64,000 bases of DNA from an uncultured Planctomycetota bacterium (GCA_964354375.1 CAYGZQ010000003.1:50040-114039), one strand, 5' to 3'. Shown: positions 16,001 to 64,000, counted from the stretch's first letter. Program-made: numbers and translations. Notes: a model not told the origin generated them from the letters alone.

Positions 16001-16182
16001 GGCTCAAATCTGTGCTACAGGTAGGTGTTGAGGATCGCGACTATGTGTACAGAATCAAGCACAGCGGGTATCGCTATCCGGATCCTAACCCTGAGTCCAA
16101 TCACCAGTACGTTGTTCCCCATTTCTACATTTGGAACTGGGAGCATCCGATGGATGGGTGGCAACAACGGTTGGACCCATAA
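13078..16182 (+). pseudogene. Lipoprotein with ~20 thrombospondin-type-3-like Ca-binding repeats and a C-terminal domain carrying a transglutaminase-like Cys motif. The reading frame is broken by an in-frame TAG at 13240..13242. Disrupted, or read through.
   Basis: ATG at 13078 encodes MCYLPRAGVLAFILLISLSFAC (lipobox). TAG lies 54 codons in. The same frame continues …PPDP*VPVEPEPRPQ…YRYRFEPEIPIEEP… into ORF 13294..16182, which starts at TTG and has no signal peptide. Repeats of DPDGDGLPNQEEPDNDNDGIPDE type. C-terminal LECDDYANILTRFMRDQGIDAESWYVSAG matches the transglutaminase Cys region. Confidence 0.5.
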
Positions 16183-22687: not shown

Positions 22688-22837
22688 CAAACACTCCTGC
22701 GGAATGGTGTACCCACATCCGTCCGAATGATTATACCATTCAGACGCTTTTGAGGGCGCAAGTGTTCCCGACATATGGCTGTCGCGTAGCATGCGCGGGG
22801 TGGGGCTGTTGAAAAAACCTGTTTCGATGCCGAATCG

Positions 22838-22991
22838 GGTGGCACCCTCAGGCGGAAAGACTGCGCGAGCAGGCTTTCTGCCTGAGGGTGTTCGATCTAT
22901 TAATCCCTCTATCCATGAGGCATTCAGGTGATTGGTCCGGCACCCCCAGTCCGCCGCGGCGGACGAGGACTCGCCTGAGGGTGCCACGCCT
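22838..22991. promoter_or_regulatory. Divergent regulatory region with three copies of the motif GTGGCACCCTCAGGCG, one direct and two inverted
   Basis: Copies at 22838..22855, 22874..22890 (revcomp, 1 mismatch) and 22973..22991 (revcomp, exact 16-mer). The first two form a 17-bp-stem hairpin. Confidence 0.45.
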
Positions 22992-23045
22992 GATATGCCC
23001 TCCTTGCGCGAAATTGCGCTTTTTCGACAGCCCAGGACGCGCATG

Positions 23046-23075
23046 TTGCGCGTTTCCCGAATCATGTGATATACT
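23046..23075 (+). promoter_or_regulatory. Putative sigma70 promoter (TTGCGC…TGaTATACT, extended -10) for the radical SAM gene pair
   Basis: Extended -10 TGATATACT lies 38 nt upstream of the GTG start, with RBS AGGAGAGG. Confidence 0.4.
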
Positions 23076-37906: not shown

Positions 37907-38067
37907 CGCCTTGACTCCTTCTCTTCTGATTCCGCCAAAGAGACTACTGGAAGATACAGATCCCTGGCCAACCAATAATATCATCTTTCTCCTCCGGTTC
38001 ATGAACTAATAGGATTGATTTTCCGCCGATTTTGACCGTTTTCCTGCTACCCTGTACAATCGGCGCT

Positions 38068-42573: not shown

Positions 42574-43575
42574 ATGTCTCCGACCGGACCCGAGAACGCT
42601 GCCTGGCGCGTCGGCATCGGATACGACGTCCACCGGCTTGTCGAGGGCAGAAAGCTCATCCTCGGCGGCGTGAAAATCGCCCATCCCACCGGCCTTCTCG
42701 GACATTCCGATGCGGACGTCCTCGCTCATACCGTGATGAGTGCACTTCTCGGTGCGATGGCCGCGGGAAGCCTTGGCGACCATTTCCCCGACACCGACCC
42801 GCAATACAAAAACATCTCGTCCATCGACCTACTTGAGCGAGTCAGGATCCTCATGGAGGAAAGCGGGTGGGTGCTTGAGAATGTCGATTGTATGGTTATA
42901 TGCGACGCTCCAAGACTTGCTCCACATATTGAGCTCATGAGAATGAACCTTTCGGAGGCTCTGCGTGTTCCAATAGAATGCGTGTCGGTCAAGGCGACCA
43001 GCACCGAGGGGCTTGGATACACCGGGACTGGAGAGGGGATCGCCGCGCAGGCGATCTGCCTTCTGAAAATGCCCGGAGAGGAGACCGAGAAGCCTGCCAA
43101 GGATAAGCGAAAATCCGAGAAAACGAAGAAAAAGCCTCAGATGCCGCCGCCCTTGCCGACGATCCGTCCGGGCGAGCTGGAGGGATGCGTTGCGCAGATA
43201 GACGGCGCATCGTCCGGGAACCCGGGACCGTCCGGTATCGGGATAGTTTTTGAAAATCCCGCCGGACATATGATCGGGAAGCTTGCGGAGTCGATCGGCG
43301 AGCGAACGAACAACCAGGCTGAATACCTGGCCGCCATCAGGGCGGCCGAGATATGCGCGGAGTGGGGGGTCAGGAAGCTTTACATCCTGACCGACAGCGA
43401 ATTGTTGTCGAAGCAGCTGGGTGGTTCATACAGGGTCAAGAATCCGGGGATACTAAGACTGTATAAGCGTCTTTCAGAGATTCTGTCGGGGTTCGAGAAA
43501 TGGAAAGTGAAACATGTGAGCCGTGAGGAGAACAAGGAAGCCGACAGGCTGAGTAGGGCGGCCTTGAAAAAGTAG
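42574..43575 (+). CDS. ispF: Fusion protein: MEcPP synthase IspF (N-terminal) plus RNase HI-like domain (C-terminal), joined by a Lys-rich linker
   Basis: IspF: GIGYDVHRLVEGRKLILGGV…GHSDADVLAHT. RNase H: IDGASSGNPGPSGIGIV (D), TNNQAEYLAAI (E), ILTDSELL (D), ENKEADRLSRAA (D). Linker EKPAKDKRKSEKTKKKPQMPPPLP. Confidence 0.85.
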   Translation: MSPTGPENAAWRVGIGYDVHRLVEGRKLILGGVKIAHPTGLLGHSDADVLAHTVMSALLGAMAAGSLGDHFPDTDPQYKNISSIDLLERVRILMEESGWVLENVDCMVICDAPRLAPHIELMRMNLSEALRVPIECVSVKATSTEGLGYTGTGEGIAAQAICLLKMPGEETEKPAKDKRKSEKTKKKPQMPPPLPTIRPGELEGCVAQIDGASSGNPGPSGIGIVFENPAGHMIGKLAESIGERTNNQAEYLAAIRAAEICAEWGVRKLYILTDSELLSKQLGGSYRVKNPGILRLYKRLSEILSGFEKWKVKHVSREENKEADRLSRAALKK

Positions 43576-43599: not shown

Positions 43600-43997
43600 T
43601 TGGGGAGCAGGCGAGGCGATCGCCGTCGTGGGCCCCGAGATTTTCGAGGGGCGCACGTCGGAGGAAAGTCCGAGCACCGCAGGGCAGGACGCTGGGTAAT
43701 ACCCAGGCGGCGCGAGCCGATGGAAAGTGCAAAGAAACCAGACCGCCCGGGCGGAAGCCCGGGTAAGGGTGTGAAGGTGAGGCAAGAGCTCACCGGCGGC
43801 CTGGCGACAGGTCCGTGCAAGCAAACCCCGTCCGGTGCAAGTCAAATCGGGAATACAGGGCTGCCCGTCCTTTCCCGAGGTAGACGCTGGAGGCAGACGG
43901 TAACGTCTGTCGTAGATGGATGATCGCGAGCCAGGGTCCCGAGCGTTGCGAAGGACCGGGCGGAACAGAACTCGGCTTATCGTCCGCTCCCCTTTCA
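43600..43997 (+). ncRNA. rnpB: RNase P RNA (bacterial type A)
   Basis: GGAGGAAAGTCCGAGCACCGCAGGGCAGG (P4 and surrounding region), GGTAAGGGTGAAGGTG, GCAAGAGCTCACCG and ACAGAACTCGGCTTATCG. The P1 strands GGGGAGCAGGCGA and TCGTCCGCTCCCC define the ends. Confidence 0.88.
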
Positions 43998-44101: not shown

Positions 44102-46387
44102 GTGAATGAAATGCAAAGGCAGATTACTTACTTGCTCGCGGCAGCTTTGACTCTGTCGCTACTTACTTCCTGCGGCGGAGTCGCGTCGAATCCGACATCT
44201 CCGAATTTCAACCAGCCCGGTCAGGGCGGAACGGCCGGCCAGCAGGGAGCCGCAGGGGAACAGACCGGCTTGCCCGGCCTGCCCGGACAGGTGTCCGGCG
44301 GCGGGGCGGCCATGGGTGAGCAGATCCTCGAGGGCACCTATGACACGCTCTGGCCTCAGGGGCTGAGCGCCATGGAAGGCGGTCAGGTGGTTAACGCCGC
44401 GCAGTGCTTCAAGAGCGCTTTGGCACAGGATTCCACAAAGGTCGATGCCGCTCTTGCCTACGCGGTGTCCGACGTCATGCGCGACCATCGAAGGTATTCG
44501 GTCTTCCTGCATCCCGGGGTGGACAAGCTCTTCATGAACACCCCCCTTATCGGACATGCAGAGGTCTTCCCCAATCCCTTCCTGCCCGAGGATTCCTACT
44601 TTCTCAGGCTTGCCGCTCTCGGCTACAGAACCAGGAAACTGGTCCCAATGATGACCTACCCCATACTGGCACCTGTCGATACAGAGCTGTTCTTCACCCC
44701 GGATACATACCTGGCGCTTTCGGGCCTGCGGCAGGAGGGCAATCAGACCGGCACGCAGACCACAATGGGTGGGACCGGTTCAGATGCAGGTGGAAACACT
44801 GTTGCTCCACCCGGTGGAGGGCCACCGCATGGCCCGCAGCCGCCGGCACCGCCACCGCCGGGCGGCGAGTCCACCCAGGGAGTCCACAAGCTGAACCTGG
44901 CTCCCCCCAAGCCCGCTGATGCGAAGCAGGGTCCGGGACCGGGCACCGGGTCCGGATCCGACACGGACCGGGGCGGGAACACCCCACCTGGGGGAACAAT
45001 CGGCGGGCTGGGCTTCGGCCTCGAGGGTCCGGCTGGGCCCCCTAAGGCGCTTCCCGAGAGGGATGAAGCCATTTCTGAACTTGAATGGGAAACGTTGTTG
45101 TCCGAGTACAGGGACGGCGCGTCCCGCGACGGAGCCGACATGTTCCTGTGTGCCAACTTCTACGAAAACCTGAGGACGCTCCACGAGGAAGTCATCGAAC
45201 ACATCACGAATCTGGAGAATGTCCGGTCCGGTGCCGAGGCCGAGGGCTACTCGCTAAGTCTGCCCTTCAACTCGATCGACGGCACCAAGAAAGTGACCAT
45301 GGCGCTCGATGTGGACGACTATCATCTGATCCTTGATTATTTTAAGCTCCTCGATGTCCTGCTCAGCTACGTGGAAGCCTACAATCATGAACTCCAGTAT
45401 ATGCTGCCGACCGATTCAATCGCGGACATGAACGGCGACCAGATTCTCACACCTGACGAGTATCTGCCCGACGCCCCGTTTGGCACTCTCGACCAGGGCG
45501 GCAAAGACACCCTTGGCGGCCTCCTCCCTGCTTTCACCGGTGCGCTCACGATCCTGAACAACGACATGCGTCCGTTACTTCAGGCCACCCAGCTTATCCA
45601 GGCGGGCGATCCTGAGAAGAAGGAAATATTCTATCTGTCGAGCTTCCATCGCAATTACATTCTCATTGAGGAATGGACAGATCTTGTTCAGTCCATCGGT
45701 GAGAAATCCTCCGGCGGTACCGCAATCAAGCTGGCGAGCGGCGCGGACATCGTCGAGGCCGTCGCGGTGTACGATGCTCTCTTCGTCACTCCCCTCGAGG
45801 ACATACGGGGTCCGCTGCCGTCGTACGATTTCGCGACACGGGCGCTGATTACGGATGAAGAGGGGAAATGGAGCAGCGATCCGACATTCGGCGGCTTCTT
45901 CCCCGAGGGTCTGAGCGCTGAGGGGACATACTCGACCGCAGGGCGTTTTTCCGCGGCCGTATACGATGAGCAGATGGGCAGGGCTGTAGGAGACAAGGTA
46001 AACCTCGGTGACCTTAGTGGCGATGTCGGTGAGACCGGGCTGGTGACTGTCAATAACGCTCTCATCAACGAGCTCACCGGGACTCCGTTTGCAGTGTTCG
46101 ACAAGGACGGCGAGGAAGTCGGGACCGGCGCCGTCCGGACTCTGTTCGAGGTGATCCCCCTGTTCGACGTGGCCAAGATCAGCATGATGCTCGCGCCGAT
46201 GATCGGCGGTGGGCCTGAGGGAATGATTCAGGAGGCCACTGGCGCAACCGGCACAAGCGCGCCGGCGGAAGGTGTCGGCCCTGAGCCGACTCCTCCGGCC
46301 GAGGGCGCCGCCGATCAGAACGGCGAAGGAACCGGCGGAAACGGTGAGAAGCCCGTCGATACGGACGGCGAACAGAAGCCCGCTTGA
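44102..46387 (+). CDS. Large hypothetical lipoprotein with G/P-rich low-complexity segments
   Basis: Signal/lipobox MNEMQRQITYLLAAALTLSLLTSCGG; RBS GAGGAAAG. Confidence 0.65.
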   Translation: MNEMQRQITYLLAAALTLSLLTSCGGVASNPTSPNFNQPGQGGTAGQQGAAGEQTGLPGLPGQVSGGGAAMGEQILEGTYDTLWPQGLSAMEGGQVVNAAQCFKSALAQDSTKVDAALAYAVSDVMRDHRRYSVFLHPGVDKLFMNTPLIGHAEVFPNPFLPEDSYFLRLAALGYRTRKLVPMMTYPILAPVDTELFFTPDTYLALSGLRQEGNQTGTQTTMGGTGSDAGGNTVAPPGGGPPHGPQPPAPPPPGGESTQGVHKLNLAPPKPADAKQGPGPGTGSGSDTDRGGNTPPGGTIGGLGFGLEGPAGPPKALPERDEAISELEWETLLSEYRDGASRDGADMFLCANFYENLRTLHEEVIEHITNLENVRSGAEAEGYSLSLPFNSIDGTKKVTMALDVDDYHLILDYFKLLDVLLSYVEAYNHELQYMLPTDSIADMNGDQILTPDEYLPDAPFGTLDQGGKDTLGGLLPAFTGALTILNNDMRPLLQATQLIQAGDPEKKEIFYLSSFHRNYILIEEWTDLVQSIGEKSSGGTAIKLASGADIVEAVAVYDALFVTPLEDIRGPLPSYDFATRALITDEEGKWSSDPTFGGFFPEGLSAEGTYSTAGRFSAAVYDEQMGRAVGDKVNLGDLSGDVGETGLVTVNNALINELTGTPFAVFDKDGEEVGTGAVRTLFEVIPLFDVAKISMMLAPMIGGGPEGMIQEATGATGTSAPAEGVGPEPTPPAEGAADQNGEGTGGNGEKPVDTDGEQKPA

Positions 46388-47302: not shown

Positions 47303-48124
47303 ATGGCCACCCGATATTTCATAGCGTTGTCCGTGGTGTTGGCCGGTATCGACCAGATTACCAAGTATCTCGCGATCAGGCTGGTCGATTTCGAGAGGCT
47401 TGAGGCGCTCCTGTCCGGCCAGATCAGTCCCGAGCGGAACGAGATTATCCCCGATTTCTACTACCTGACTCTGACGTTCAATAAGGGCATCGCCTGGGGC
47501 ATGCTTCCCGAATGGAGCGAGTACTTCACCTACTTCGCCATCATCATGGTGCTCGTCATCCTGATGATCCTGAGGAAGCTGGATCGTGACGAGGTCTGGC
47601 TGAAGATAGCGCTCGCGTTCCAGATGGCGGGCGCGATCGGCAACATGTCCGACCGTCTGATTCACCACAGGGTGACCGATTTTGTCGATGTGGTCCTTTT
47701 CCCGGGCACGAGATGGCAGTACGACTGGCCGATTTTCAATCTTGCCGACAGCTTCGTGGTAATCGGGACCGTCGTCCTTGTGCTGGTGCTGGTTTTCGCG
47801 AAGGAAGCCAGACCTGAGCCTTCCGAGGTGCAGGCGCAGCCCGTTTCGGGCGACCTTTCCGCACTGCCTGCGAGCGGCGCCTGGGAGAGTGTCGAGAGGC
47901 TCCAGGGCAGCGTGCCGACTGAGGAGGGTCTTGTCGAGATACCGGCCGAGTCGCGCTCCGAGATGCTCGCCCCCTTCGAGGAAGCTGCGTTTCGGGCGGA
48001 AGAGATCGAGGAGCCGCTTGGCACCCGTCCGCCTGCAGGCGACGAGAAGGTTCACGAGCCTGATTCGGTGGTTGATCGCGACAAGCTGGACGAGTTGAGC
48101 AAACGTCCCGAGCGGGATGAGTAG
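47303..48124 (+). CDS. lspA: Lipoprotein signal peptidase II with a ~100-aa acidic C-terminal extension
   Basis: GIDQITKY, FNKGIAWG and FNLADSFVVIG motifs; 4 TM helices. Confidence 0.8.
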   Translation: MATRYFIALSVVLAGIDQITKYLAIRLVDFERLEALLSGQISPERNEIIPDFYYLTLTFNKGIAWGMLPEWSEYFTYFAIIMVLVILMILRKLDRDEVWLKIALAFQMAGAIGNMSDRLIHHRVTDFVDVVLFPGTRWQYDWPIFNLADSFVVIGTVVLVLVLVFAKEARPEPSEVQAQPVSGDLSALPASGAWESVERLQGSVPTEEGLVEIPAESRSEMLAPFEEAAFRAEEIEEPLGTRPPAGDEKVHEPDSVVDRDKLDELSKRPERDE

Positions 48125-51895: not shown

Positions 51896-52366
51896 ATGAT
51901 CGAATCGCCCGACATCATCGAGCGGCTCAGGGCTCTGGTTGAGAGCGGGGGGGCGTTCATGGCCCTGTTCGACCGCTCCATGGTTCAGCGCTCTCGAGCG
52001 CTCGAGCTGATCGAGGTGCTTCTGGAATCGCTGCCGGAGGAACTGGAGCAGGCGAAGAGCATTCTTGAGCGCCAGGACCAGATTCTCGAGGAAGCCCGAC
52101 AGCAGGCGGGGGAGATTGTCGATGACGCAGTGAAGCGGGCCGAGCGTCTTGTGGACGCCGATTCGATCACCAGGCGTGCCCGCGAGCGCTCCGACGAGAT
52201 CATGGACGACAGCGACAGGTATGTCGTCGAGCGTCTTGAATCGCTGGAACACGAATTGAACACGCTGCTCTCCGAGGTCCGTGCGGGGATGGAGTCGATG
52301 CAATCGAGGACTCAGAGCGGAAGGGGTCGCGCTGTGGACAACGGCTCATCCCTTGACAAGGGTTGA
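51896..52366 (+). CDS. Hypothetical coiled-coil protein at the position usually held by yceD/DUF177 upstream of rpmF
   Basis: 156-aa ORF, helical and charged, no Cys pairs; call rests on conserved neighbourhood only. Confidence 0.45.
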
Positions 52367-52414
52367 GTACCCGATTATACTACCGCAGCCTTCATTGTCT
52401 GAACGAGGCCGATT

Positions 52415-52609
52415 ATGGCATTACCGAAATACAAGCTTTCGAGGTCCAACACGAAACAGAGACGCGCCGCATGGAAGGCTCAGCCGCCGGAGCTGGGCAC
52501 CTGTCCGTCCTGCGGAAAATCCAGACCTTCGCATACAATCTGCCCACACTGTGGTTTCTATAAGGGCCGTCAATTCAAGCCCCGCAGGCGTGAGAAGCGG
52601 GAAGAGTAA
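52415..52609 (+). CDS. rpmF: 50S ribosomal protein L32
   Basis: [18 protein letters not shown]…CPSCG…CPHCGFYKG. Confidence 0.85.
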
Positions 52610-52625
52610 CCACCGAGGAGATATC

Positions 52626-52868
52626 ATGAACGAAGAGATTTTCGAGAAGCTCAAGGGCATCATCGTTGAGCAGCTTGGGGTTAAGGAAACCGAGATCAGA
52701 CCTGAGGCACACTTCGCCGACGATCTCGGCGCCGACAGCCTTGACATCGTCGAGATGATCATGGCCGTGGAGGAAGAGTTCGCCATTCAGGTTTCCGACG
52801 AAGAAGCCGAATCCCTCCAGACCGTCGCGGACGTCATCCGCTTCATCAAAGAACACAAGGAAAGCTGA
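52626..52868 (+). CDS. acpP: Acyl carrier protein
   Basis: [20 protein letters not shown] with the phosphopantetheinylated Ser in DSLD. Start is ATG 52626 with RBS GAGGAG, not the longer ORF-track start. Confidence 0.85.
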
Positions 52869-52997: not shown

Positions 52998-53801
52998 TTA
53001 CTTCAAGGGTGCGCGGTTTACAGGACTCGCAGCGGCTTCCGGATCGTACAGACGGCGCGAGTACAGGTAGTACCCGATGCCCATCAGGGAAACCGCCAGA
53101 CCCACGGCGATCGCCACGGGCGGGTCGAGCAGGGTGTGCCTGAGGAGCGTGGGATCGAGGTACCATCTGACGAAATAGAAAGCGAAACCGGCCCCGGCCG
53201 CTCCGCCCGCCGCCGCGAAAGTCTGTTTCATTGCAAGCGACAGGGATTTCCGCTCTGTGTATATCCCGAAGAAAAGCGTGATCAGGCCGATCAGGGGCGA
53301 CGCGATCGAGAACCTGGTAATGCAGATGTTGGCGCAGCCGAGCACGATCAGAACGCCCGATACCATCCTCATCAGGCGAGAGCGGTTCATTCCCCGCATG
53401 CGCGACCCTACGAGGTGCGAGATCAGCACGCCCGCCGTCCCGATACATCCGGCGCTTACCGCAGCCACCGACAAGTCGATCATCCCGAAGCGATAGAGGT
53501 AGAAGGCCGCGTTCGCGAGCAGAACCGCCGCTATGACACCGATGGTAAACGATATCCGACCGGAGAAGACCCTGATGTTCTCCGAATTCAGCAGCGCGAA
53601 TCCGGCCAGCTTGATGTACCCCACGAATCTGCTGACCACAAGAATGCTCGTAGCCAGCAGGATCAGTATGCGCCGGTCTTCCTCGGAAGACACGAGCATG
53701 ATGTTCGGCACACCGGCAATCAGCGCCGTGACGCCATAGATCATCAGAAACAGCGCGCTCCTGGTGCGGTAACGTTCGAATGGTCGCGACGGTTTACCCA
53801 T
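52998..53801 (-). CDS. Polytopic membrane protein (~8 TM), unknown function
   Basis: Hydrophobicity pattern only. Confidence 0.5.
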   Translation of the reverse strand: MGKPSRPFERYRTRSALFLMIYGVTALIAGVPNIMLVSSEEDRRILILLATSILVVSRFVGYIKLAGFALLNSENIRVFSGRISFTIGVIAAVLLANAAFYLYRFGMIDLSVAAVSAGCIGTAGVLISHLVGSRMRGMNRSRLMRMVSGVLIVLGCANICITRFSIASPLIGLITLFFGIYTERKSLSLAMKQTFAAAGGAAGAGFAFYFVRWYLDPTLLRHTLLDPPVAIAVGLAVSLMGIGYYLYSRRLYDPEAAASPVNRAPLK

Positions 53802-53987
53802 AACAAAAAAGCCGGGCCGCTCTGTGACGACACCCGATCCTCTGGCTTATCTTAACACGTTCCGACTCCAAGGCCAATAGCCCTCATGCTCGGTGGGGGG
53901 TTCGGTCCATTCGGACACCTTGTCGACCTGCGCGGCCGCAGGTACACGCCCCTCGACTCTCCCCCCATTAAGATCGATTAAACCTCA

Positions 53988-56369
53988 TTAATCGTACACT
54001 ATCGGGACGGAAATCACGAAAATCGTGAGGGCGTGCTGCTCCAGCTCCCCCCGACTGACCCTGACATCGGACGATACACCGGAGGATGCGAGCATGAGAT
54101 AAGCCCTCTGGGGGCGGCCCGTTGTCCAGGACTGGGTGTAGTACTGCGATCGTCCCACCGGCATCGCATAGACCTGCTTCCACAGCTCCTGAAGCACCTG
54201 TCCCATGAGTTGGTCGATCGCATTCATGCCGGGTCCCTGCAATCTGGACGGGAAATCGCCCTGGTATTCCGGGGCAAGCCCCTCGCCCCGGTTGATCTCC
54301 TCTCCGTCGACAAGGTTGCAGTCGAGGTGAATCTCCGTGCCCTCCGGGACCACATTCTTCCCCACCGTCAGCGCACGCGAGGATACGGAGATCCGTCCCG
54401 CAACTGCCGGGAACGACAGCTTTGCGTCGAGCTTGAGGTGAGCCGTGGTCGGGCCGACCGTCAGCTTGCCGGTGGCCGTCAGCTCGGGTGCCTGCCGACG
54501 CATGACAAACGTGCGCTCGCCCAAACCGTCGGCACGCATCGAGACAGCCTCCAGAGGGAGGTCCGGGAGGCTGATTTTCGATCCTTCCTCGACTGTGACC
54601 GTGCCGTATGGCCATACCGCGGGGTCCGCCAGCTCGTCCAGAATGGCGTTCGAATGATTCCACGTGAGCGTGTGTGGGGCCGAAGATGTCGCGCTGTACG
54701 ACATGCACGAGTATACGTGGGATTGTCCGCCTGTCGCTCCAGAGGACTCCTCGGGAACGATCGCCTCGCACCAGTACAGGTTTGCCTCGTTCAGCCTGAC
54801 CTTCTCCGATGAGGGTTTTCCGGTCCTGAAAAAGGCGATGCCAGTGAAGACCACGGACCATAGTATGAACGTGGCCAGAATGATATTTCCCCGACCTTTC
54901 GCCAGGATTGCGATGATCGGCAACGCGAGGAGGTAGATCAGCACTGGTCCGAGAGCGTTGAGCCATCTCATCACCCGGCCCGGACCGCCTCCCGAGCCCT
55001 GCCTGAAAAAGGTCTGGATTCTCGCGTCGTAAAATCCTCTGAACTGGATCACCGAGTCGGCGGCAAGCTGGCGTGCCGGAGAGAAAGGATCGAGAAGCCC
55101 GTAGACGGCGAGCAGTCCGATCGGCGGATCGCCGGCGGCTGGTCCGCCCTCGAACGGATCGAATGCCGCGAATCCCGCGTGACCTCCTCCAAGCGTCCGG
55201 ACAACGAGTATCGGCGACGTCATCCCGGAGACTGTGACCGTCTCGCATTCGACCGCAGGCGTGACCAAGACCGTATTGTAGCTGTCAGGGCGATTCCACA
55301 CATTCTGCGCCGCATCCTCCCCTGCGTCGGGGACTCCGTCACCGCTCGATTCCTCCGGGGGAGTGAAAACCTCCCCGTGAATGCCCCGGGTCTTGCCGGT
55401 GGCCCTTCGAGGCATGAAGCTGTCGAATCCGCCCTCCGGCAAGATTCGGTCGCACGTCTCCAGAAACGCTTCGATCGGCACCGATCCCTGCCCCTGCGCG
55501 GCCGTCACAGCGAGCAATTGATCGCTCTCCCAGCCGTCCACCGGATCGATCCCGTCCTCGTAATAGATCAGCATGTTTCCGCCGTGAAGAACGTACTCCA
55601 GGATCGTGTCTTTCTTCTGTCGGTCCAGAGCGAGGTACGTGCTCACATTTGTCGCGATGAGGCTCACGCTCTCGAGGAGGATCGCGTTGGAGGGCAGATC
55701 GCCGGGGTCGAGAACAACCGGGAAGATCTTCGGAGGATACTCGACAAGGCCTCCGGACGGATGCACGCCCTTCCAAGCCATGTTCAGAAATCCGGGATTG
55801 TTGCCCAGGAACAGGTTCTCCAAAGGCCCCCACGGCGTTCCAAGATGGATGACGAGGCTATCGAACTGGCTGAGCATCCAGGAGTCCAGGTTCACCTGCT
55901 TCAGGGGGTCTCCGTTTGCGCTCAGCACGCTCACCGGCACCGTGCACGGGCTTTTGTCGAAGCAGCCGAAACATCCAATCTCAACTTTCTGCCGCGCGCC
56001 GGGGGGGATAATGATCGGCTGAGTGTAGTAGGTCGGCGGGACCCATCCCTGCATGTCCGCAAGCGCCCAACCCTCCAGCAGGTCCCCCTTGTTCTCGATC
56101 AGGAGGCTTATGGGCGACGGAGTCTGGATTCGGTAGTATCCACCGAATCCCACGGAGCCCGTGAACTCGATGTTTCTGGACCCTGCCTGTGCGTGCAACG
56201 GCCGCGCGGAGGTGAAGACAAGGCAGAGGAAAGTCAACAGAAAGACGCAAAATCGCAGAGAATCGATACCCCCCCTTTGTTCCCCCCCAAGGTGGGGGAC
56301 GGCGAGGAACCGATATCGGAGATGAGTCCGACCTGTCAGTTCAGTGGAATGCGGCCTTGTTCTGAGCAT
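53988..56369 (-). CDS. Large membrane-anchored protein (N-terminal signal/anchor and mid-protein TM helices); paralogous to 57082..59790
   Basis: Start is 6 nt after the upstream stop. Shares the …L.E.V..GG..I… segment and overall architecture with the 902-aa protein. Confidence 0.55.
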   Translation of the reverse strand: MLRTRPHSTELTGRTHLRYRFLAVPHLGGEQRGGIDSLRFCVFLLTFLCLVFTSARPLHAQAGSRNIEFTGSVGFGGYYRIQTPSPISLLIENKGDLLEGWALADMQGWVPPTYYTQPIIIPPGARQKVEIGCFGCFDKSPCTVPVSVLSANGDPLKQVNLDSWMLSQFDSLVIHLGTPWGPLENLFLGNNPGFLNMAWKGVHPSGGLVEYPPKIFPVVLDPGDLPSNAILLESVSLIATNVSTYLALDRQKKDTILEYVLHGGNMLIYYEDGIDPVDGWESDQLLAVTAAQGQGSVPIEAFLETCDRILPEGGFDSFMPRRATGKTRGIHGEVFTPPEESSGDGVPDAGEDAAQNVWNRPDSYNTVLVTPAVECETVTVSGMTSPILVVRTLGGGHAGFAAFDPFEGGPAAGDPPIGLLAVYGLLDPFSPARQLAADSVIQFRGFYDARIQTFFRQGSGGGPGRVMRWLNALGPVLIYLLALPIIAILAKGRGNIILATFILWSVVFTGIAFFRTGKPSSEKVRLNEANLYWCEAIVPEESSGATGGQSHVYSCMSYSATSSAPHTLTWNHSNAILDELADPAVWPYGTVTVEEGSKISLPDLPLEAVSMRADGLGERTFVMRRQAPELTATGKLTVGPTTAHLKLDAKLSFPAVAGRISVSSRALTVGKNVVPEGTEIHLDCNLVDGEEINRGEGLAPEYQGDFPSRLQGPGMNAIDQLMGQVLQELWKQVYAMPVGRSQYYTQSWTTGRPQRAYLMLASSGVSSDVRVSRGELEQHALTIFVISVPIVYD

Positions 56370-56375
56370 CCGGGG

Positions 56376-57092
56376 TCAAATTGTAGCACGGGTTTTGGTG
56401 AAGGGCAGGGGCAGGGCATGGAGCGTGATCGCGATGACGGCGAGAAGCGCGTGAAACGACACGGCGGTCCAGTCCGATTGCACGATCTCGCGCGCCTGCG
56501 GAGCGATCAGAAACGCGTCAGCCATCCCGCGTGCCAGATGAACGGAGCCCGCGAAAATCCAGGCCGTCAGGGGTCGAAGGCGGGGATGCGGCGCACGGGA
56601 AAGGGCGAAATCGACTCCCCAGGCCATCATCGTGCCGAGAATCATCAGGTCTATGACAGCGGTCGCGAGCGCAGCGGGTCCGGGGAACGCGTTTGAGCCC
56701 GCGATCATGGGCATGCTGAGGAGGATGAAGAGGCCGTACAACGTCAGGGCCGACAAGGGAAGTACGCCGCCGGAGAAAGGTTGGCACGCGGCTGTGTCGA
56801 CCAGGTGTCTCTGGACTCCGTGCCAGTACACCAGAACGGAGGGAATGATCAGAAGGCCCGCGAGCGCCAGCATGGAATGAGGGCCGAATGCGCCTCTGGA
56901 CGGGCAGAGAAGGCTGAAGCCGAACGGGTCGATCGACTGGAACGCGTCGCCCCTGAACGGGGATGTGCCGCCCGAGAACGGCAGCATGCAGGCAAGCAGG
57001 AGAAAAAACGCCATGAGCCATTCCGGACGCGCCAGGATTCGACCGAGAAGGATCGGGACCGGAGAGAATATGGATGCTTGGTCACGAAGCAT
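56376..57092 (-). CDS. 6-TM membrane protein (possibly permease-like)
   Basis: Hydrophobicity. Overlaps the upstream gene by 11 nt and precedes the downstream gene by 6 nt, consistent with translational coupling. Confidence 0.55.
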   Translation of the reverse strand: MLRDQASIFSPVPILLGRILARPEWLMAFFLLLACMLPFSGGTSPFRGDAFQSIDPFGFSLLCPSRGAFGPHSMLALAGLLIIPSVLVYWHGVQRHLVDTAACQPFSGGVLPLSALTLYGLFILLSMPMIAGSNAFPGPAALATAVIDLMILGTMMAWGVDFALSRAPHPRLRPLTAWIFAGSVHLARGMADAFLIAPQAREIVQSDWTAVSFHALLAVIAITLHALPLPFTKTRATI

Positions 57093-59790
57093 TTATGGTG
57101 ATGCCGTTCAGGGCGATGATATCGCCCGCGACCGCGGAGTCGCCTTCGATCCTCAGATACAGAGTTCTCCTGTCGGGGGCGAAGTACCTTTCAACATCGT
57201 TCAGCCTTATCATCACCCTGCCCCTCGTCGAGCCGAACTCGGGCATGCGCACCCATATCCCCTGTTCATGGTTGAAGACCCAGACAGTGAAAGGAGCGCT
57301 CGTGTCGGTCGTGCCGACGCTCACGCGAAGCATCGCGGGAAGGTCGACCGACGGCCCGGTGGGGGGAAGACTGATCGAGTAAACCATCTGCCCGTCCGTC
57401 AGGAGAAGCGCGCCGGAGGGCTCGATCTCCATGTTTGCGGCGGAAAGGGCGACGATCTGGCCTTCGGCTCCCTCGACGGGCGAATTGCCCTTCTCGATGA
57501 CCAGCGGAATGTGGATGAGGACGAGCGTTTCCTCATTGTTGGCTCTGATGCGCGGGCTGGACAGAGCCCGGTCGCCCGCCGAGGACCTCCAGCCCGCAAG
57601 CACGAGCTCGTCGGCGCCGGAGCTGTGCGTCGGCCTGGCGTTGAGGACCTCCAGCGCCCCATCGCGAAGCCTGCGCGACCTCGGCGTTACCTGGCTCCCC
57701 ATCGTCCCAAGCGATATCGAGTCCGCACGCGAGTCGGTCAGAAGATCGAAATCGATCGAGCCGTTCCGAAGTCCGGCCTCCGACCCGGCCTGGAGACGTT
57801 TACCTACGAACTGTCCCTGCGTGTAATAGTACAGGAACGGCTCCTGAAGATCGTAGTTCAGCGCGACATTGAGTTTTCCGACAAGATGGTATCCATCCAG
57901 CGACACGTTCTCCAGGAACGCCGATCCGGGGCTCTCGCACGCGCCGGAGCTCTCGAGATGGAGCTCCGACCAGATCTTGATGTACGCGTCGCTTACGAAC
58001 GCATCGCCCCGCTTCCCGTGCTGAACGAGGTTCAACATGTCTGAAGGAGAAACATCCTGTTGAGACATGCCGTACATGGGCGACTGGATCGACGGTGTCT
58101 CGAGGCGCCTGATGAGGTCCCGGCCCGTCTCAAGCTCGACGTCGTAACGCCTGGCAGCCGGACTGAACAGGCTGAACCAGCTCGATTCCCACGCGGTCTG
58201 CGCCGACGGAAACGCATCCAGTACGTTTACCCTCGCAAGCATCAGCCTGGCGCCCTTCGTGCTCAGCGCCCAGCTGTACGATGCGATCACGAACGCCGCC
58301 ACCACAAGGGGAATCGTGTACCACAGCCACTCCCGTCTCCGCATCCTCAGGAGGATGAAGTAGTTGACCGGACCGACCACGATGATATATGCGACGAGAA
58401 ACAGGGCGACCGATTTCACCGCGGGAAGCGCTGTCAGGTTGTCGGATTGAAGGAGGTTGTCGATGTCATAGGAGAGCCTGTAGCGGGACCGCTCCACGAA
58501 CGGATTCGGGTTCTGCCCACCCCGACCCCATCCGTAGCGGTACGGGGACTCGGTCTTCACTATCGGCCTAATTCGATCGTCCGCGGCCATCAGGTAGCCC
58601 ATCATGAACGTCAGGTAATCCCCCAGACCCGCGCTCGTGGTCGCTTTCATTGCGCCCAGGTTGAGCCCGGAAAGAAGGATGTCGCCCTCCCCAAGTTTCA
58701 GGTGCTGAAGGACTGGAATGTCGCCTTCCGCAAAGAGGGTTCTTGCGCTTGCCTGGGGCGCGAAAGTGACCGGGAAGTCCCCCGTTATCGGATTGTGCCC
58801 TGTGAGACCGGGGACCGTTCTCAGCTCGGCCAGCGTGGTCCTCACGGTGGGTTCCGTGATTGCCGACGGTCCGGCCCAGCCGCTTCCGTCGATCGCACCG
58901 GTCAGAAACGATCCCTGGTAACGATTCGGATCCTCTCCGAGCCAGATGATCACTCTGCCGCCGGATACGATCCACTCCGCCAGGGCGGCCTTCTGTTCCT
59001 CCGTGAGTTCGTAGAAGCGCCGCGTGTTCAGGATCAGGCCCTCGACGGACTCGTAACCCTCGGGACGATCGGGAAGGCCGGACGGTTTGATCCAGACCAT
59101 CAGAGGGTCCGCGGGGGAGTAGCGAATATTCGGCGGAGGGGACCCTCCGCTGGTGTACGGACTCCGGTAGCTTCCGTGTGTAGGTCCCTGAGCTTCAGCA
59201 GCGAAACGCGCTATGTCGGCGAACGACGGACCCTCCGGAAGGGAAACGCCGCTCAGGAATACGAAATCGGCGCCTTCGTCCGCGACCTCGACCCACAGCC
59301 TCTCCTCATCCAGAAGGCTTTTCAAGTCAATCACTTCGGTGGCCACAGGCGTGGTCTCAACGTACTGCACGTAGATCGAAGGCGACGGGTCCGCCTCGAG
59401 GAAATAGGGGTACAGGAAGTAGGTCTTTCTTGAGTTTGTCGGGATGTCGCACTCGGCTAGGAAAGTGGCGGTAAGCGGATTCGCTGTGTCCTGGCTGACG
59501 ACCCTCAGTTGCCCCTTGCGGGACGGTCCCGAATTCTCCAGCGTCACCCTGATCGGGAAGTAGCAGCCCTGGCGGATGAAACCGTCCAAAACCTGGCGCG
59601 CTTCCATCTTGAGCCCTTCTGCGTTCTTCTCCGCGCCCTGGCCCGGCTCGCTTTCGGTCTGAGCGACCGCATGTCCCGTGAACAGAACGGCCAAAGCGAG
59701 AAGCATCAACACGAACCAGGTCGCGGATTTGGGCCCTGACGATCCTTTCCTCTTGATGTGGATCCCCGGCTGTCGCTTTGATGAGGTCAT
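57082..59790 (-). CDS. Large membrane-anchored protein with signal peptide and internal TM pair; first gene of a 3-4 gene membrane module
   Basis: Signal …FVLMLLALAVLFTGHAVAQT; TM helices around residues 470-520; EEQKAALAEWIVSGGRVIIWLG segment. Confidence 0.55.
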   Translation of the reverse strand: MTSSKRQPGIHIKRKGSSGPKSATWFVLMLLALAVLFTGHAVAQTESEPGQGAEKNAEGLKMEARQVLDGFIRQGCYFPIRVTLENSGPSRKGQLRVVSQDTANPLTATFLAECDIPTNSRKTYFLYPYFLEADPSPSIYVQYVETTPVATEVIDLKSLLDEERLWVEVADEGADFVFLSGVSLPEGPSFADIARFAAEAQGPTHGSYRSPYTSGGSPPPNIRYSPADPLMVWIKPSGLPDRPEGYESVEGLILNTRRFYELTEEQKAALAEWIVSGGRVIIWLGEDPNRYQGSFLTGAIDGSGWAGPSAITEPTVRTTLAELRTVPGLTGHNPITGDFPVTFAPQASARTLFAEGDIPVLQHLKLGEGDILLSGLNLGAMKATTSAGLGDYLTFMMGYLMAADDRIRPIVKTESPYRYGWGRGGQNPNPFVERSRYRLSYDIDNLLQSDNLTALPAVKSVALFLVAYIIVVGPVNYFILLRMRRREWLWYTIPLVVAAFVIASYSWALSTKGARLMLARVNVLDAFPSAQTAWESSWFSLFSPAARRYDVELETGRDLIRRLETPSIQSPMYGMSQQDVSPSDMLNLVQHGKRGDAFVSDAYIKIWSELHLESSGACESPGSAFLENVSLDGYHLVGKLNVALNYDLQEPFLYYYTQGQFVGKRLQAGSEAGLRNGSIDFDLLTDSRADSISLGTMGSQVTPRSRRLRDGALEVLNARPTHSSGADELVLAGWRSSAGDRALSSPRIRANNEETLVLIHIPLVIEKGNSPVEGAEGQIVALSAANMEIEPSGALLLTDGQMVYSISLPPTGPSVDLPAMLRVSVGTTDTSAPFTVWVFNHEQGIWVRMPEFGSTRGRVMIRLNDVERYFAPDRRTLYLRIEGDSAVAGDIIALNGITINAS

Positions 59791-60158
59791 ATTTCCCTAC
59801 GCCACAGTCTGAAAATCGTCCTTCATCGAAATCGAGGAACTCACTATATCAGACCGAATGAGGCATTGAAAGTTCAGCCAGCAGCGTGGTTTCGAGTCAC
59901 CCGGGAGTGTTGATGCAGCAACGGTGTCCATCTCCCTGATTTCCTGGGGACGGTCCGAACGGGCAGGGGAGGACAAAGTGTCCCCTGTCGGCGGAATTGC
60001 GGGGATATAGCATAATATGCCTAGAGATTCTGAGCCGGTCGGCCTCCCGGTGGCCATCAGCAAAGGGATTCAGCGGCCTCTTAAATCTGCGCTATAATGT
60101 GCCATTTGGTACAATAACTGCCCCGTTACGCTCACAACACCTTCGGGAGTGTCCGACC

Positions 60159-61913
60159 ATGAAAATGTCGCGCCTCGCGTTCCTCTTATCTTTTCTCTTC
60201 CTGGCCGCAGCGCTTTCGTCCTGTGGCGGAAGCGACCCTGTCACCGGCGGGCCGGGCAACACCCCGGACCCTCCTGTCTTCGGCCTCAACACGGACGGGG
60301 TGAGCATCGATGCCCAGGATGCCGGGCAAGGAACGTGGAGGCTCTCCATCGCACCGGGAAGCTCTCATCTTGTTACATACAGCCCGCCCGGCGGCTATGC
60401 AGACGCCATTTTCGAAGCCCGGTGCTCCGATGGTTCATGGCGCGTGGACGGGAAAGATGCCGGCAAGTGCATCGCTACGCGCGACCGCTCCCTCGAATGG
60501 GTTGCACCTTCCTCCACCGCCGAAGTGCAGCTCCTGTTCTTTCCCAGTGACCCTGGAAGCGGGCTCAAGTTAGGCATGATGGTTGTTGTGTCGGATGAAT
60601 GGTATATGAATCCTCGCCGGCCGGTTCCGTATGACCGCGAGGCTACATTCGCGAATCCGTTGACGGGCGAAAAAGTCGTGGCGGCTGCAGGAGAGCTCCT
60701 CATAAAACTGGCGAGCGATCAGCCGGTCACCGCGGTTCTGTCACTCAGGGCGGGCCGGGACTACGAAGTGCTGGAGAGAGTCAGCGCGACCGATCCGGTG
60801 TTCAGGGTCCGACTGAATTCATCGGTGGACATCGGCAGCGCATGGCTCGAGCTTGTCAATGATCCGAGAGTGGCGGTTGTTGAGCCCAACTATCTCGCAT
60901 ATCCGACGGTGGTTCCGGACGATCCCGATTACGGGAACAAGCACGAGTTTCCGATGATCGACGCCCCGCTGGCCTGGGACATGGCGACCGGCTCGCCTGA
61001 CGTGTGGGTGGCAGTTGTCGACACCGGCGCGGATCGCGATCATCCCGATCTTGCCGCCAACGTGCTGCCGGGCGCGGATTTCATCCTCGGGGGCGACGGG
61101 CTCGGAGGCGAGACCCCGGGCGACGGCATCGACAACAACCAGGACGGGTGTGTCGATCAGAACGTGGGACACGGAACGCATGTCGCAGGAATCATTGCAG
61201 CCCAGGCGTTCAACGGCGTCGGGGCCTGCGGAATAGCATACAACACAGCAATACTGCCCCTGAGAATCTTCCCCACAAACGGCGATACCGGCGCGACCTT
61301 CTCGAGCATTATCGAGGCCGTCGAATATGCCACAGCCGAGAGCAACGTGAAGGTCATCAGCATGTCCATAGGGACCACGTACGAGTCGAGCCTGCTTCAG
61401 TCCGCCATAAACGACGCCTGGGCGGCGGGCAAGGTGCTGGTCGCGGCCGCTGCGAACTCGAACACGAGCGCGGAATTTTTCCCGGCTGCGCATGATAATG
61501 TCATCGCCGTGGCGGCCCTCAACAAGAGCGGGACCAAGGCGAGTTTCTCGAACTACGGCGCCTGGGTCGACATCTCGGCTTACGGGACCGGCATCTACTC
61601 GACATATTTCGACAACATGTATGCCTATATGTCGGGAACTAGCATGGCGTGCCCGCTGGTCTCGGGTTGCGTTGCGCTGCTCTTCTCCTATGACCCAACC
61701 TTGTCGAACGAGCAGTGCGTGGACATGATTTTCAGTTTCACGGACGATGTATACGAAGCGAATCCCGACTATCCCGGTCAGCTCGGCAGCGGCATTGTGA
61801 ACCCGTACATGGCGATGGACGGGCTGAATCACAGCCAGCCGGGCGGTGTCGGGGATGCGGGCAGCGACGGAAGTGTCTCAGACACCCGGATCGAGCCGGG
61901 CCCGAAAGCCTAG
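60159..61913 (+). CDS. Subtilisin-like (S8) serine peptidase lipoprotein
   Basis: Catalytic triad motifs VAVVDTGAD, HGTHVAGIIA and GTSMACPLVSG. Start MKMSRLAFLLSFLFLAAALSSCGG. Confidence 0.85.
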   Translation: MKMSRLAFLLSFLFLAAALSSCGGSDPVTGGPGNTPDPPVFGLNTDGVSIDAQDAGQGTWRLSIAPGSSHLVTYSPPGGYADAIFEARCSDGSWRVDGKDAGKCIATRDRSLEWVAPSSTAEVQLLFFPSDPGSGLKLGMMVVVSDEWYMNPRRPVPYDREATFANPLTGEKVVAAAGELLIKLASDQPVTAVLSLRAGRDYEVLERVSATDPVFRVRLNSSVDIGSAWLELVNDPRVAVVEPNYLAYPTVVPDDPDYGNKHEFPMIDAPLAWDMATGSPDVWVAVVDTGADRDHPDLAANVLPGADFILGGDGLGGETPGDGIDNNQDGCVDQNVGHGTHVAGIIAAQAFNGVGACGIAYNTAILPLRIFPTNGDTGATFSSIIEAVEYATAESNVKVISMSIGTTYESSLLQSAINDAWAAGKVLVAAAANSNTSAEFFPAAHDNVIAVAALNKSGTKASFSNYGAWVDISAYGTGIYSTYFDNMYAYMSGTSMACPLVSGCVALLFSYDPTLSNEQCVDMIFSFTDDVYEANPDYPGQLGSGIVNPYMAMDGLNHSQPGGVGDAGSDGSVSDTRIEPGPKA

Positions 61914-61961: not shown

Positions 61962-62543
61962 ATGAACGGACAAAGACTGGCGATAGGTCTTATCATACTT
62001 TTCCTCTGCGCCATGTGCCTCATCCAGACTTCGATGACAGGCTGCAGTTCTGCAGACAAGTCTGCAGGTGCGGCGGCATCCGATTCCGCCGACGCCGACT
62101 CCCCGTTCTTCCACGGAACGAGCGACAGTGAAGAGTCACCCGATCAGTGGGAGGCGGTCTCCGAAAAAGTCCTGGACCAGATCAAGGACATGTACGCCGA
62201 CAGCGGAGTCGAGATCCGGGCCCTTGAGAGAAGCCACTACGGAGCCCCCGGAATAAGGTGCAGCCTCGTAAGGAAGGAGGCCGTTCCGACCCGGAAACAG
62301 CTCCTCGACGGCATGTATCTCCTGTACCTTACGTTTCCCCGCCAGAAGGTCTACATGGTCGACCTGGGCGAGGACACTCAGGACAGGCTGGAGACCCGAT
62401 GGGAGGCGCTTGCCGCGTTCGCTGAGGCCGGCTATTCGTTCGAGACCGGCCCGGGCGAGACTGAGAGCTTCTGGTCGATCCTGACCGCGGCGGACTCCGC
62501 CAACCAGCAGGGGAAATCGATCCAGACCGAATCATCCGATTAG
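61962..62543 (+). CDS. Hypothetical lipoprotein
   Basis: Signal/lipobox …SMTGCSSA; RBS GGAGGA. Confidence 0.6.
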   Translation: MNGQRLAIGLIILFLCAMCLIQTSMTGCSSADKSAGAAASDSADADSPFFHGTSDSEESPDQWEAVSEKVLDQIKDMYADSGVEIRALERSHYGAPGIRCSLVRKEAVPTRKQLLDGMYLLYLTFPRQKVYMVDLGEDTQDRLETRWEALAAFAEAGYSFETGPGETESFWSILTAADSANQQGKSIQTESSD

Positions 62544-62865: not shown

Positions 62866-64000
62866 ATGCCTGATGGAAGAACCGTGAAGACATTGGAGCG
62901 TGCTCGACTTTCCAGTTTCCTTATATACGCTCTATTGCTCATCTTCCTGTTGCCCGGCTGCGGAGGCAAGGGAGCCGGCGATGTTACCGCTCCCGCGACG
63001 GACAAGAATCCATCCACGGACGGACCTCCCGCGCTTACCGCCGCAATAGACTATCCGCCTTCGGTTCCAGGGCAGGTCGGTGGTAAGGCGTCCTGGGGAC
63101 TGTGGGACATCGCCCTCGACCGCGAATCCGGGTTCCAGGTCGTTCCCTTGAGAGGTGTCGAGTATTCGCTTAATGTCAACACCTTCCTGCAGCCCCCCAT
63201 GGGCAGTCTCGCGAACCTCCAGATCAATGTCGTCAACATGGAGAAGCTCTTCATCGCGGGCGATGTCACCGTGGATGTCTCGATCAGCCATCCCTTCCCG
63301 GCGGCTTCCCAGTTCACCGGCTTCGATGTTCTCGGGGTGATCATAGGCAAGGGTACCTTCGTTGCCAACTCCGACATCGGCATCGTCTTTGCCGACCCTC
63401 ACAAGAATCCTGTGTTGAAGAACGCGGACGGGTACACGCGCTGGATGAACCAGCTTGAGTTCACGACGGAGGGCTTACGGGGCTATACAGAGGGTGCCAG
63501 GGGGAAGAAGGGCCAGTTCTGGAATTCGTCCCTCAACGGTTACAAGTACTTCGCGACTAACCTCTATCCCACGGAATCGATCGTCGAATTCTACCAAAGC
63601 TCGTCCATGGTCTCTCAGCGCGGGATGTTCTCCACCAATGCGACAAACACGAGGCGATACGATCTGCATTTCCCGATGGTCGGGGGCTTTCCGGACGTGC
63701 GGTTCCAGTACGCAGTGGTTGCGAGCTGGGTCGAGCCCGTCAACATTCCGCCCCACAATCTTCCGGGGGATTTCCCGGCCGCCGCAAACATGCAGGAGGC
63801 CTTCCATTGCGAGATCTCCACGGTCGGCAGCAGCCTTTACTGGAACAACATGTACGACAACGGCGGAGACCTTTTCCTCACCCTGGAGATTTTCGACTGG
63901 CAGGGCATGACGAATCTCTCCGGCGTCGCGGGCGAGATCAAGCAGGTCACCCTTGACAGCCCGGACGAGTTCATCAACAACGGCAGCAAGATGGTGTTCG
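62866..64000 (+). CDS. Lipoprotein, paralog family member C (N-terminal family domain); 3' end runs off the window
   Basis: MPDGRTVKTLERARLSSFLIYALLLIFLLPGCGG lipobox. Family motifs FTGFDVLGVIIG, NADGYTRWMNQ, NGYKYFATNLY, NTRRY, FQYAVVASW. Not in the ORF track because no stop lies inside the window. Confidence 0.7.
   Translation, partial: MPDGRTVKTLERARLSSFLIYALLLIFLLPGCGGKGAGDVTAPATDKNPSTDGPPALTAAIDYPPSVPGQVGGKASWGLWDIALDRESGFQVVPLRGVEYSLNVNTFLQPPMGSLANLQINVVNMEKLFIAGDVTVDVSISHPFPAASQFTGFDVLGVIIGKGTFVANSDIGIVFADPHKNPVLKNADGYTRWMNQLEFTTEGLRGYTEGARGKKGQFWNSSLNGYKYFATNLYPTESIVEFYQSSSMVSQRGMFSTNATNTRRYDLHFPMVGGFPDVRFQYAVVASWVEPVNIPPHNLPGDFPAAANMQEAFHCEISTVGSSLYWNNMYDNGGDLFLTLEIFDWQGMTNLSGVAGEIKQVTLDSPDEFINNGSKMVF

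Follow-up and report, generated by a model that had tools for sequence, protein, structure and literature searches.

What kind of envelope machine is encoded by four co-directional membrane-protein genes that resemble parts of an ATP-binding cassette (ABC) exporter and have no ATPase gene beside them? The question is raised by positions 52998-59790 of a 64,000-nt stretch of DNA from an uncultured Planctomycetota bacterium (GCA_964354375.1 CAYGZQ010000003.1:50040-114039), the whole of which we call the window. An earlier annotation made from the DNA alone, here the sequence-only reading, had described the locus as a co-directional membrane module in which two large signal-anchored paralogues are joined by two polytopic membrane proteins. 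The four open reading frames (ORFs) have the coordinates and lengths given there and all lie on the minus strand: gene A (57082-59790, 902 aa), gene B (56376-57092, 238 aa), gene C (53988-56369, 793 aa) and gene D (52998-53801, 267 aa), as read from ORFs and translations. The description as a module of this kind also stands, with ORFs, topology, BLASTP and hhalign in agreement. Our results suggest, with about even confidence, that these genes belong to a seven-gene envelope module whose ancestor was an ABC-2-type exporter equipped with a large accessory protein in the periplasm. The boundaries first drawn around the module were too narrow, as they left out three conserved lipoprotein genes, those for a subtilase and for two further proteins, F and G.

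Proteins A and C are built to one plan. In both, hydropathy shows a cleavable-looking signal peptide and then a soluble stretch of about 420 aa, which a hairpin of two transmembrane (TM) helices (aa 463-510 in A, aa 472-514 in C) separates from a second soluble region, with 390 aa following the hairpin in A and 280 aa in C; this agrees with the arrangement of N-terminal signal, large domain, mid-sequence TM helices and second soluble region proposed earlier. Because each protein makes two TM passes, both large domains of A and of C are expected to be periplasmic. In A these comprise a beta-sandwich (aa ~57-175), a non-catalytic GATase1-like, DUF4350-DUF7408-like domain (aa ~228-400) and a C-terminal beta-rich domain (aa ~620-900), and C likewise has a beta-sandwich and a GATase1-like domain, the TM hairpin and a C-terminal domain. 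The TM hairpin of A (58261-58404, minus strand), with the motif GPVNYFILL...RRREWLWYTIP, is the most conserved core of the superfamily described below (profile positions ~440-540). The GATase1-like domain has the conserved core LPDRxEGY...ALxEWVxxGGxxI/V, which is the segment that had caught attention in the sequence-only reading. Judged by invariant alignment columns, residues 228-400 of the A family contain neither an invariant nor a nearly invariant Cys or His, and we therefore regard this domain as a non-catalytic scaffold of the flavodoxin/GATase1-like type. Membership of A and C in the class I glutamine amidotransferase or ThuA families was rejected, as neither has a Pfam match or a conserved Cys-His-Glu triad and the kinship in fold is at clan level and runs through relatives. 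The ThuA/GATase-like segment pointed out in the sequence-only reading is thus borne out indirectly, by GATase1_like matches in 5 and a ThuA match in 1 of 40 relatives, and not by any direct Pfam match of A or C.

The relationship between A and C is distant. BLASTP of A against C gives an E-value of 5e-4, and hhalign of the A family against the C family gives 95% (E 2.9e-8) over the N-terminal ~270 aa only. A hidden Markov model (HMM) of 40 remote members of the superfamily, with the close family left out, matches C (E 7e-19) over aa 43-272 only. The restriction of this HMM match to the N-terminus, together with the hhalign result, indicates that C is a strongly diverged paralogue of A. No further A/C paralogues were found in the window; the ORFs at 1143-3524 (plus strand, 793 aa) and 7612-10284 (minus strand, 890 aa), both large and without a Pfam match, are unrelated by HMM despite their similar size.

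The close family of A consists of 17 full-length relatives, all metagenomic, and its wider relationships became visible when the A-family profile was searched against 1.84 billion cluster representatives (clusters at 50% identity). This search returned 6114 representatives at E<=1e-3, of which 2838 reach E<=1e-10, mostly proteins of about 800 aa whose strongest shared segment is the TM hairpin, GPxNYxxL...RREWxWxTIP. The HMM built from the 40 remote members alone matches A from aa 27 to 889 (E 5.6e-116), and hhalign aligns the A family with a protein from Anaerolineae (P0019) over aa 46-868 at 99.8%. Among the 40 remote members, Pfam finds weak signatures of DUF7408 in 32 and of DUF4350 in 22, while PF09822 is found in none at E<=0.01 and no NCBIfam family and no GldG model is matched. 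An HHpred comparison has tied DUF4350 to GldG (PMC5898192). Neither A nor C directly matches Pfam DUF7408 or DUF4350 at E<=0.1, so that the link is transitive, through relatives; at the same threshold neither has any other Pfam or NCBIfam match, apart from one unrelated match at 0.06. Profile searches with A, C, B and D against the sequences in the PDB gave chance-level matches only. HMM annotation, one of the checks suggested in the sequence-only reading, accordingly yielded no usable Pfam or NCBIfam match for A-D and placed A and C through the 40-member HMM. On the strength of these profile comparisons, A is a true full-length member of a very large unnamed superfamily that bears DUF7408 and DUF4350.

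The genes next to remote homologues of A point to a role of this superfamily beside ABC transporters. We looked up eight neighbourhoods, of which seven are informative (the contig of P0047 ends at the gene). An ABC_tran ATPase gene lies immediately downstream of the A homologue in six of the seven, the exception being P0036, where no ABC ATPase gene follows directly. In four of these six (P0018, P0019, P0050 and P0091) an ABC2_membrane permease gene comes after the ATPase gene; at P0067 (locus L029) the contig ends after the ATPase gene, and at P0020 (locus L013) there is no permease gene there and a toxin gene pair is inserted instead. This arrangement, which is that of phyla other than the Planctomycetota, suggests that A belongs to a widespread class of ABC-2 transporter accessory proteins. 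MoxR-type AAA+ genes are found further downstream in two remote loci, L012 (16500-22442) and L031 (12413-12481), and L012 also has DUF58, BatA and VWA genes, fragmented as if by frameshifts, which hints at a recurrent link of the accessory superfamily with Bat/MoxR clusters. Two observations at L013 stand apart from this: the toxin pair that breaks the ABC operon adjoining P0020 is of the PemK type, and in the product of an ORF near P0020 (L013 2170-4377, minus strand) an ABC-2 permease is joined in one chain with an intramembrane protease domain of the Rce1-like (CPBP) type.

Protein B is predicted to have the six-TM fold of ABC-2 (type V exporter) permeases. Its hydropathy profile has five strong hydrophobic peaks, and in an AlphaFold2 (AF2) model made from 24 sequences (predicted local distance difference test score, pLDDT, 78; predicted template modelling score, pTM, 0.79) a short N-terminal helix is followed by six TM helices, the number counted in the sequence-only reading. 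The N-terminal helix, at residues 11-20, is elbow-like. Fold matches of the model include ABCA4, CcmB, ABCG5, ABCG1, KpsM, ABCA3, Wzm and LptG. A profile search with B found 23 close orthologues only; B has no Pfam domain, and none of 24 B-family and 6 D-family members matched the ABC2_membrane models at E<=1. We rejected the idea that B or D is a diverged ABC2_membrane_2 permease still recognisable by sequence, since hhalign and hmmsearch against the neighbouring permeases were negative. The best-conserved parts of B are TM1 and periplasmic loop 1 (PFRGD...DPFGFSLLxPS, entropy 0.8-1.0 bits), and residues D55, D148, D192 and H214 are conserved. Conservation is lowest on the cytoplasmic face, the TM2-TM3 loop having an entropy of 2.93 bits. 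In type V exporters the coupling helix lies in the TM2-TM3 loop.

Protein D is unrelated to B. It has seven to eight hydrophobic segments, and a topology of eight TM helices with both termini in the cytoplasm, again the number first counted, fits the positive-inside rule. D is the most conserved protein of the cluster, at 57-95% identity, and its cytoplasmic N-terminal peptide, PFERYRTRSALF, is nearly invariant, which shows that some cytoplasmic contact matters. No relatives of D were detected outside the cluster, and it has no Pfam or PDB sequence match.

The absence of an ATPase gene, which the sequence-only reading had also reported, is confirmed for the window. A Walker-A scan of all ORFs of at least 80 aa in the 64 kb gave nothing but two spurious loose matches, and it gave no candidate in 21 orthologous loci, flanks of up to 10 kb included, while the ABC ATPases of L012-L015 and L029, which served as a positive control, were recovered. 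A Pfam scan of 27 other ORFs of the window found housekeeping and unrelated genes only. The result covers one window and flanks of at most 10 kb. The ATPase genes of ABC-2 systems normally adjoin their permease genes.

Orthologues of A-D occur at 30-95% identity in about 20 metagenomic or metagenome-assembled loci, which indicates that the genes are real and under selection. These loci are from Planctomycetota wherever the taxon is labelled, and the cluster is lineage-specific, confined to some uncultured members of the phylum. A synteny search, the other check suggested in the sequence-only reading, found that the order G-F-S8-A-B-C-D, S8 being the subtilase gene, is conserved in all orthologous loci that reach far enough, with A, B, C and D transcribed in one direction and S8, F and G divergently in the other. 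In the window the first four occupy the minus strand and the other three the plus strand. All seven products are envelope proteins by their signal peptides, TM segments and three lipoboxes. In the literature on DUF7408/DUF4350, on GldG structures and on ATPase-less ABC-2 permeases we found no description of this seven-gene cluster.

The junctions between the genes differ. As first read from the DNA, the stop codon of A and the start codon of B overlap by 11 nt (ATGCTTCGTGA) and a gap of 6 nt separates the stop of B from the start of C. C and D are 186 nt apart (53802-53987, minus strand), with a weak terminator-like hairpin (53831-53816) followed by a T-run; such hairpins are no more frequent in the region than in shuffled sequence. 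These junctions suggest tight coupling of A, B and C and perhaps separate initiation of D, so that the translational coupling proposed for all four genes holds for the first three and not for the C-D pair. Gene D may have its own promoter. D follows C in the loci long enough to show it, L009 apart. The divergent intergenic region between A and the subtilase gene (59791-60158) is 368 nt long and presumably contains both promoters; no sigma-70 consensus site was found in it.

On the other side of this region lies the lipoprotein operon. The subtilase gene (60159-61913, plus strand) encodes 584 aa from MKMSRLAF... with the lipobox LSSC, and its product is a member of Peptidase_S8 by its match to PF00082 (E 3.9e-48, 164.7 bits against a cutoff of 21.8). 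The catalytic D-H-S motifs are intact (DTG 288, HGT 338, GTSMA 495), and the orthologues share them with two exceptions: no GTSMA was found in the call of L005, which is truncated, and L010 has HGS. Gene F (61962-62543, plus strand) encodes a small lipoprotein of 193 aa (lipobox MTGC) without a known Pfam domain. Gene G (62866-64000, plus strand) runs off the end of the window, which holds its 5' part, 378 aa of a large lipoprotein (lipobox LPGC); a full-length orthologue has 1243 aa and an Ig-like domain, Big_13, as its sole domain signal. Two small ORFs in this part, 62932-63402 (minus strand) and 63455-63910 (plus strand), were rejected as conserved small genes and are alternative-frame shadows of G. 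In every locus reaching that far, down to 38% identity of A, the subtilase gene and F stand next to A in divergent orientation, and this holds in L003 and L021, where the flank on the D side differs. G directly follows F, at 53-95% identity, in ten loci (L003-L009, L018, L019 and L021). The synteny is supportive of a functional link between the two divergent operons without proving it.

The sequence-only reading had named GldFG-like arrangements as a near but poorly fitting analogy. The ATPase gene in six of seven informative neighbourhoods, the permease gene in four of six and the predicted fold of B make this the best lead, and the gene context of the superfamily gives it a better foundation than was first allowed; membership in the GldG family was not found. 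No match to a characterised ABC-transport auxiliary or aerotolerance operon, which that reading had said would speak against its view of the module as unassigned, was found either, and the related superfamily is itself uncharacterised.

We suggest the following origin for the seven-gene module. The ancestor would have been an operon with genes for the accessory protein, the ATPase and the ABC-2 permease. Within this planctomycetal clade, duplication of the accessory gene may have given A and C, and the position of the permease would have been taken by B, with the ABC-2 fold kept and the sequence diverged past recognition. The unrelated eight-TM subunit D would then have joined, the ATPase gene would have left the locus or been lost, and the unit would have become fixed beside the lipoprotein operon. 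By analogy with NosDFY, GldAFG and Lpt, we infer how A-D might work. The core in the inner membrane would consist of B, probably dimeric and perhaps with D included; A and C would dock on this core by their TM hairpins and hold two large periplasmic assemblies above it; and on these assemblies, as on a platform, an envelope substrate or partner might be handled, the likeliest candidates being the subtilase, F and the Ig-like G. The remaining cytoplasmic contact could be supplied by the N-terminal tail of D. In the same way we infer that the proteins of the cluster form a complex and are functionally linked to the lipoprotein operon, as well as what the substrate and energy source might be. Because B is least conserved at the face where an ATPase would dock and no ATPase gene is present in cis, we lean towards a form without a dedicated ATPase. 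In its strongest version, which we put forward tentatively and think rather unlikely as stated, B would have permanently lost its nucleotide-binding partner and, with D, A and C, would form an ATP-independent inner-membrane platform that positions or activates the subtilase and the large lipoprotein.

Other readings of the same data have to be weighed against this one. The locus may encode a conventional ABC-2 exporter in which A and C are GldG-like, B, perhaps with D, is the permease and the ATPase is supplied in trans, for ATP-driven export or for periplasmic mechanotransmission like that of NosDFY, GldAFG or LptB2FG. The ATPase and permease genes of the superfamily context (six of seven and four of six loci) would fit such a system, as would the predicted ABC-2 fold of B with its elbow-like helix at 11-20, and the nearly invariant cytoplasmic peptide of D could bind a cytoplasmic partner. 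We nevertheless consider it a minority possibility, if a serious one, as no P-loop ORF lies within 10 kb in the 21 orthologous loci, ATPase genes normally sit next to ABC-2 permease genes, and the loop expected to carry the coupling helix is the least conserved segment of B. It is less probable again that A-D form a novel complex whose function is unrelated to ABC transporters, the likeness of B being that of a generic six-helix bundle or a modelling artefact and A and C re-using a common scaffold domain. Such a complex would account for the lack of any sequence link of B to an ABC2 family and for its Foldseek E-values of 0.18 or higher, and the conserved D55, D148, D192, H214 and PFRGD/DPFGFSLL of B could suit an enzyme or a receptor.

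The link between the two halves of the cluster may also be less than it seems, A-D and S8-F-G being two unrelated operons adjacent through ancestral gene order only. The housekeeping genes of the other flank are likewise syntenic in many loci, and the G-like gene is only 33% identical in L001 and L010 and is displaced in L001. This is set against the divergent position of the subtilase gene and F beside A in every locus that reaches them, to 38% A identity and including L003 and L021, and against the envelope location of all the products, and we regard a merely inherited neighbourhood as possible and on balance improbable. A Bat/aerotolerance system (MoxR-DUF58-BatA-VWA) or a type VII secretion system (mycosin with Ecc proteins) was suggested by the MoxR genes downstream of two remote A homologues, one of them also with DUF58, BatA and VWA genes, and by the best NCBIfam match of the subtilase, which is to the mycosin model (TIGR03921). 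That match, at 173.7 bits, falls far short of the cutoff of 278.75, an EccC-type ATPase is absent, and neither the seven proteins nor the window as a whole contain a VWA, BatA, DUF58, AAA+ or Ecc-like domain. The Bat-like analogy of the sequence-only reading thus finds no support in the window itself, and we rejected both the Bat-like and the mycosin interpretations, which are effectively refuted for the window by the absence of every defining domain and have a very small probability at most.

Several points weigh against descent of the seven-gene module from an ABC-2 exporter. B and D lack sequence similarity to the ABC2_membrane Pfam families, to PDB chains and to the permeases beside remote A homologues, and the assignment of B as a permease therefore rests on one AF2 model of 24 fairly similar sequences, whose Foldseek E-values, at 0.18 and above, are not significant. 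For A the AF2 model is of poor quality as a whole (mean pLDDT 57), its confident parts being limited to 57-175, 228-285 and 620-900, and Foldseek against the PDB with this model gives generic beta-sandwich, CBM (carbohydrate-binding module) or Doc1-like matches; on both grounds we rejected any assignment of function to A from its model. The gap between C and D grows from 186 nt in the window to 1.4 kb in L008, and a distance of about 7 kb in L009 revealed no D. On the D side the flanking housekeeping genes ACP-CoaD-RsmD-TGT-RluD are also syntenic in many loci, so that the synteny of S8-F-G may partly reflect shared ancestry and not function. An ATPase could be encoded elsewhere in the genome. 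The reading of the cluster as a whole rests on one predicted fold and on gene context.

Some other features of the window deserve mention. Next to D, an acyl carrier protein ORF (52281-52868, plus strand) has 195 aa when read from a GTG codon, with the domain in aa 117-193 only; its start is probably much later than the GTG at 52281, or else it is overlapped by a 156-aa coiled-coil-like ORF upstream (51896-52366). An LspA (Peptidase_A8) ORF of 273 aa (47303-48124, plus strand), with the domain in aa 10-165 and a C-terminal extension of about 100 aa, lies 5 kb from the cluster with its three lipoprotein genes. Further away, an ORF at 42574-43575 (plus strand) unites two domains in an unusual fusion, IspF/YgbB (aa 12-164, E 1.4e-62) and, towards the C-terminus, an RNase H-like domain (RVT_3/RNase_H, aa 209-330), and lies directly upstream of a bacterial RNase P class A RNA gene (43604-43994, plus strand, 245 bits), the sole Rfam match in the window. 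A protein of 1415 aa (18818-23065, minus strand) has three protein-kinase-domain stretches followed by TPR (tetratricopeptide) repeats, and an 880-aa secretin of the type II/III secretion or pilus family is encoded at 35360-38002 (minus strand). Two more large ORFs without a Pfam match, of 962 and 761 aa, lie at 13294-16182 and 44102-46387, both on the plus strand.

If the module does descend from an exporter, it offers a first handle on a superfamily of more than 6000 clusters of ABC-associated periplasmic accessory proteins that have so far been labelled by DUFs only. It would also be a case of an exporter core that persists without an ATPase gene in cis, which bears on the evolution of the NosDFY, GldAFG and Lpt mechanotransmission machines and on the roles of their accessory proteins; and should the ATP-independent platform prove true, an ABC exporter core would have found a new use, either as a passive scaffold or in a machine driven by another energy source. 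For the uncultured planctomycetal lineage the cluster would be a candidate envelope machine tied to a subtilase and surface lipoproteins. All this is of modest practical importance, as the clade is narrow and has no cultured member.

How does the cluster compare with known systems? Bat/MoxR-DUF58-VWA loci are likewise envelope-associated clusters and have membrane proteins with GATase1_like domains, whereas the BatA N-terminal, VWA, DUF58 and MoxR AAA+ domains are absent from our cluster and from the window. The members of the unnamed superfamily (P0018, P0019, P0050, P0067 and P0091) resemble A throughout, in the beta-sandwich, the GATase1-like domain with LPDRxEGY...GG, the GPxNYxxL/RREWxW hairpin and the C-terminal domain. 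Unlike their loci, the cluster has no adjacent ATPase gene and no recognisable ABC2_membrane permease gene, in the window or in the orthologous loci, and it has the diverged second copy C, the clade-specific B and D and the divergent lipoprotein protease operon. NosDFY, GldAFG and Lpt are ABC-2 machines whose accessory proteins carry their action into the periplasm. NosY of NosDFY (PDB 7o0y) and the type V exporters ABCG2, PmtCD, Wzm-Wzt and CcmAB share 5-15% identity with B, with no signal at the sequence level; the cluster differs from NosDFY in lacking a NosF-like ATPase, a NosD beta-helix protein and other nos genes, and in that the coupling region of B is not conserved. The GldA-GldF-GldG system of Bacteroidota likewise combines a large membrane-anchored periplasmic accessory protein, with a flavodoxin/GATase1-like domain, and an ABC-2-type six-TM permease. 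The differences are that A and C do not match ABC_transp_aux (PF09822) or TIGR03521 and carry an internal TM hairpin and a second periplasmic domain of 280-390 aa, and that our cluster has two accessory paralogues, an extra eight-TM protein, no GldA-like ATPase gene and a planctomycetal host. Formal membership in GldG/ABC_transp_aux was rejected, as no model matches, no ATPase gene is present and B is permease-like by its predicted fold only. By our preferred reading, descent from an ABC-2-type exporter, the cluster is a variant of such an exporter with accessory proteins, no ATPase gene nearby and clade-specific subunits, and, by analogy, it is most like an ABC-2 system of the GldFG or NosDFY type.

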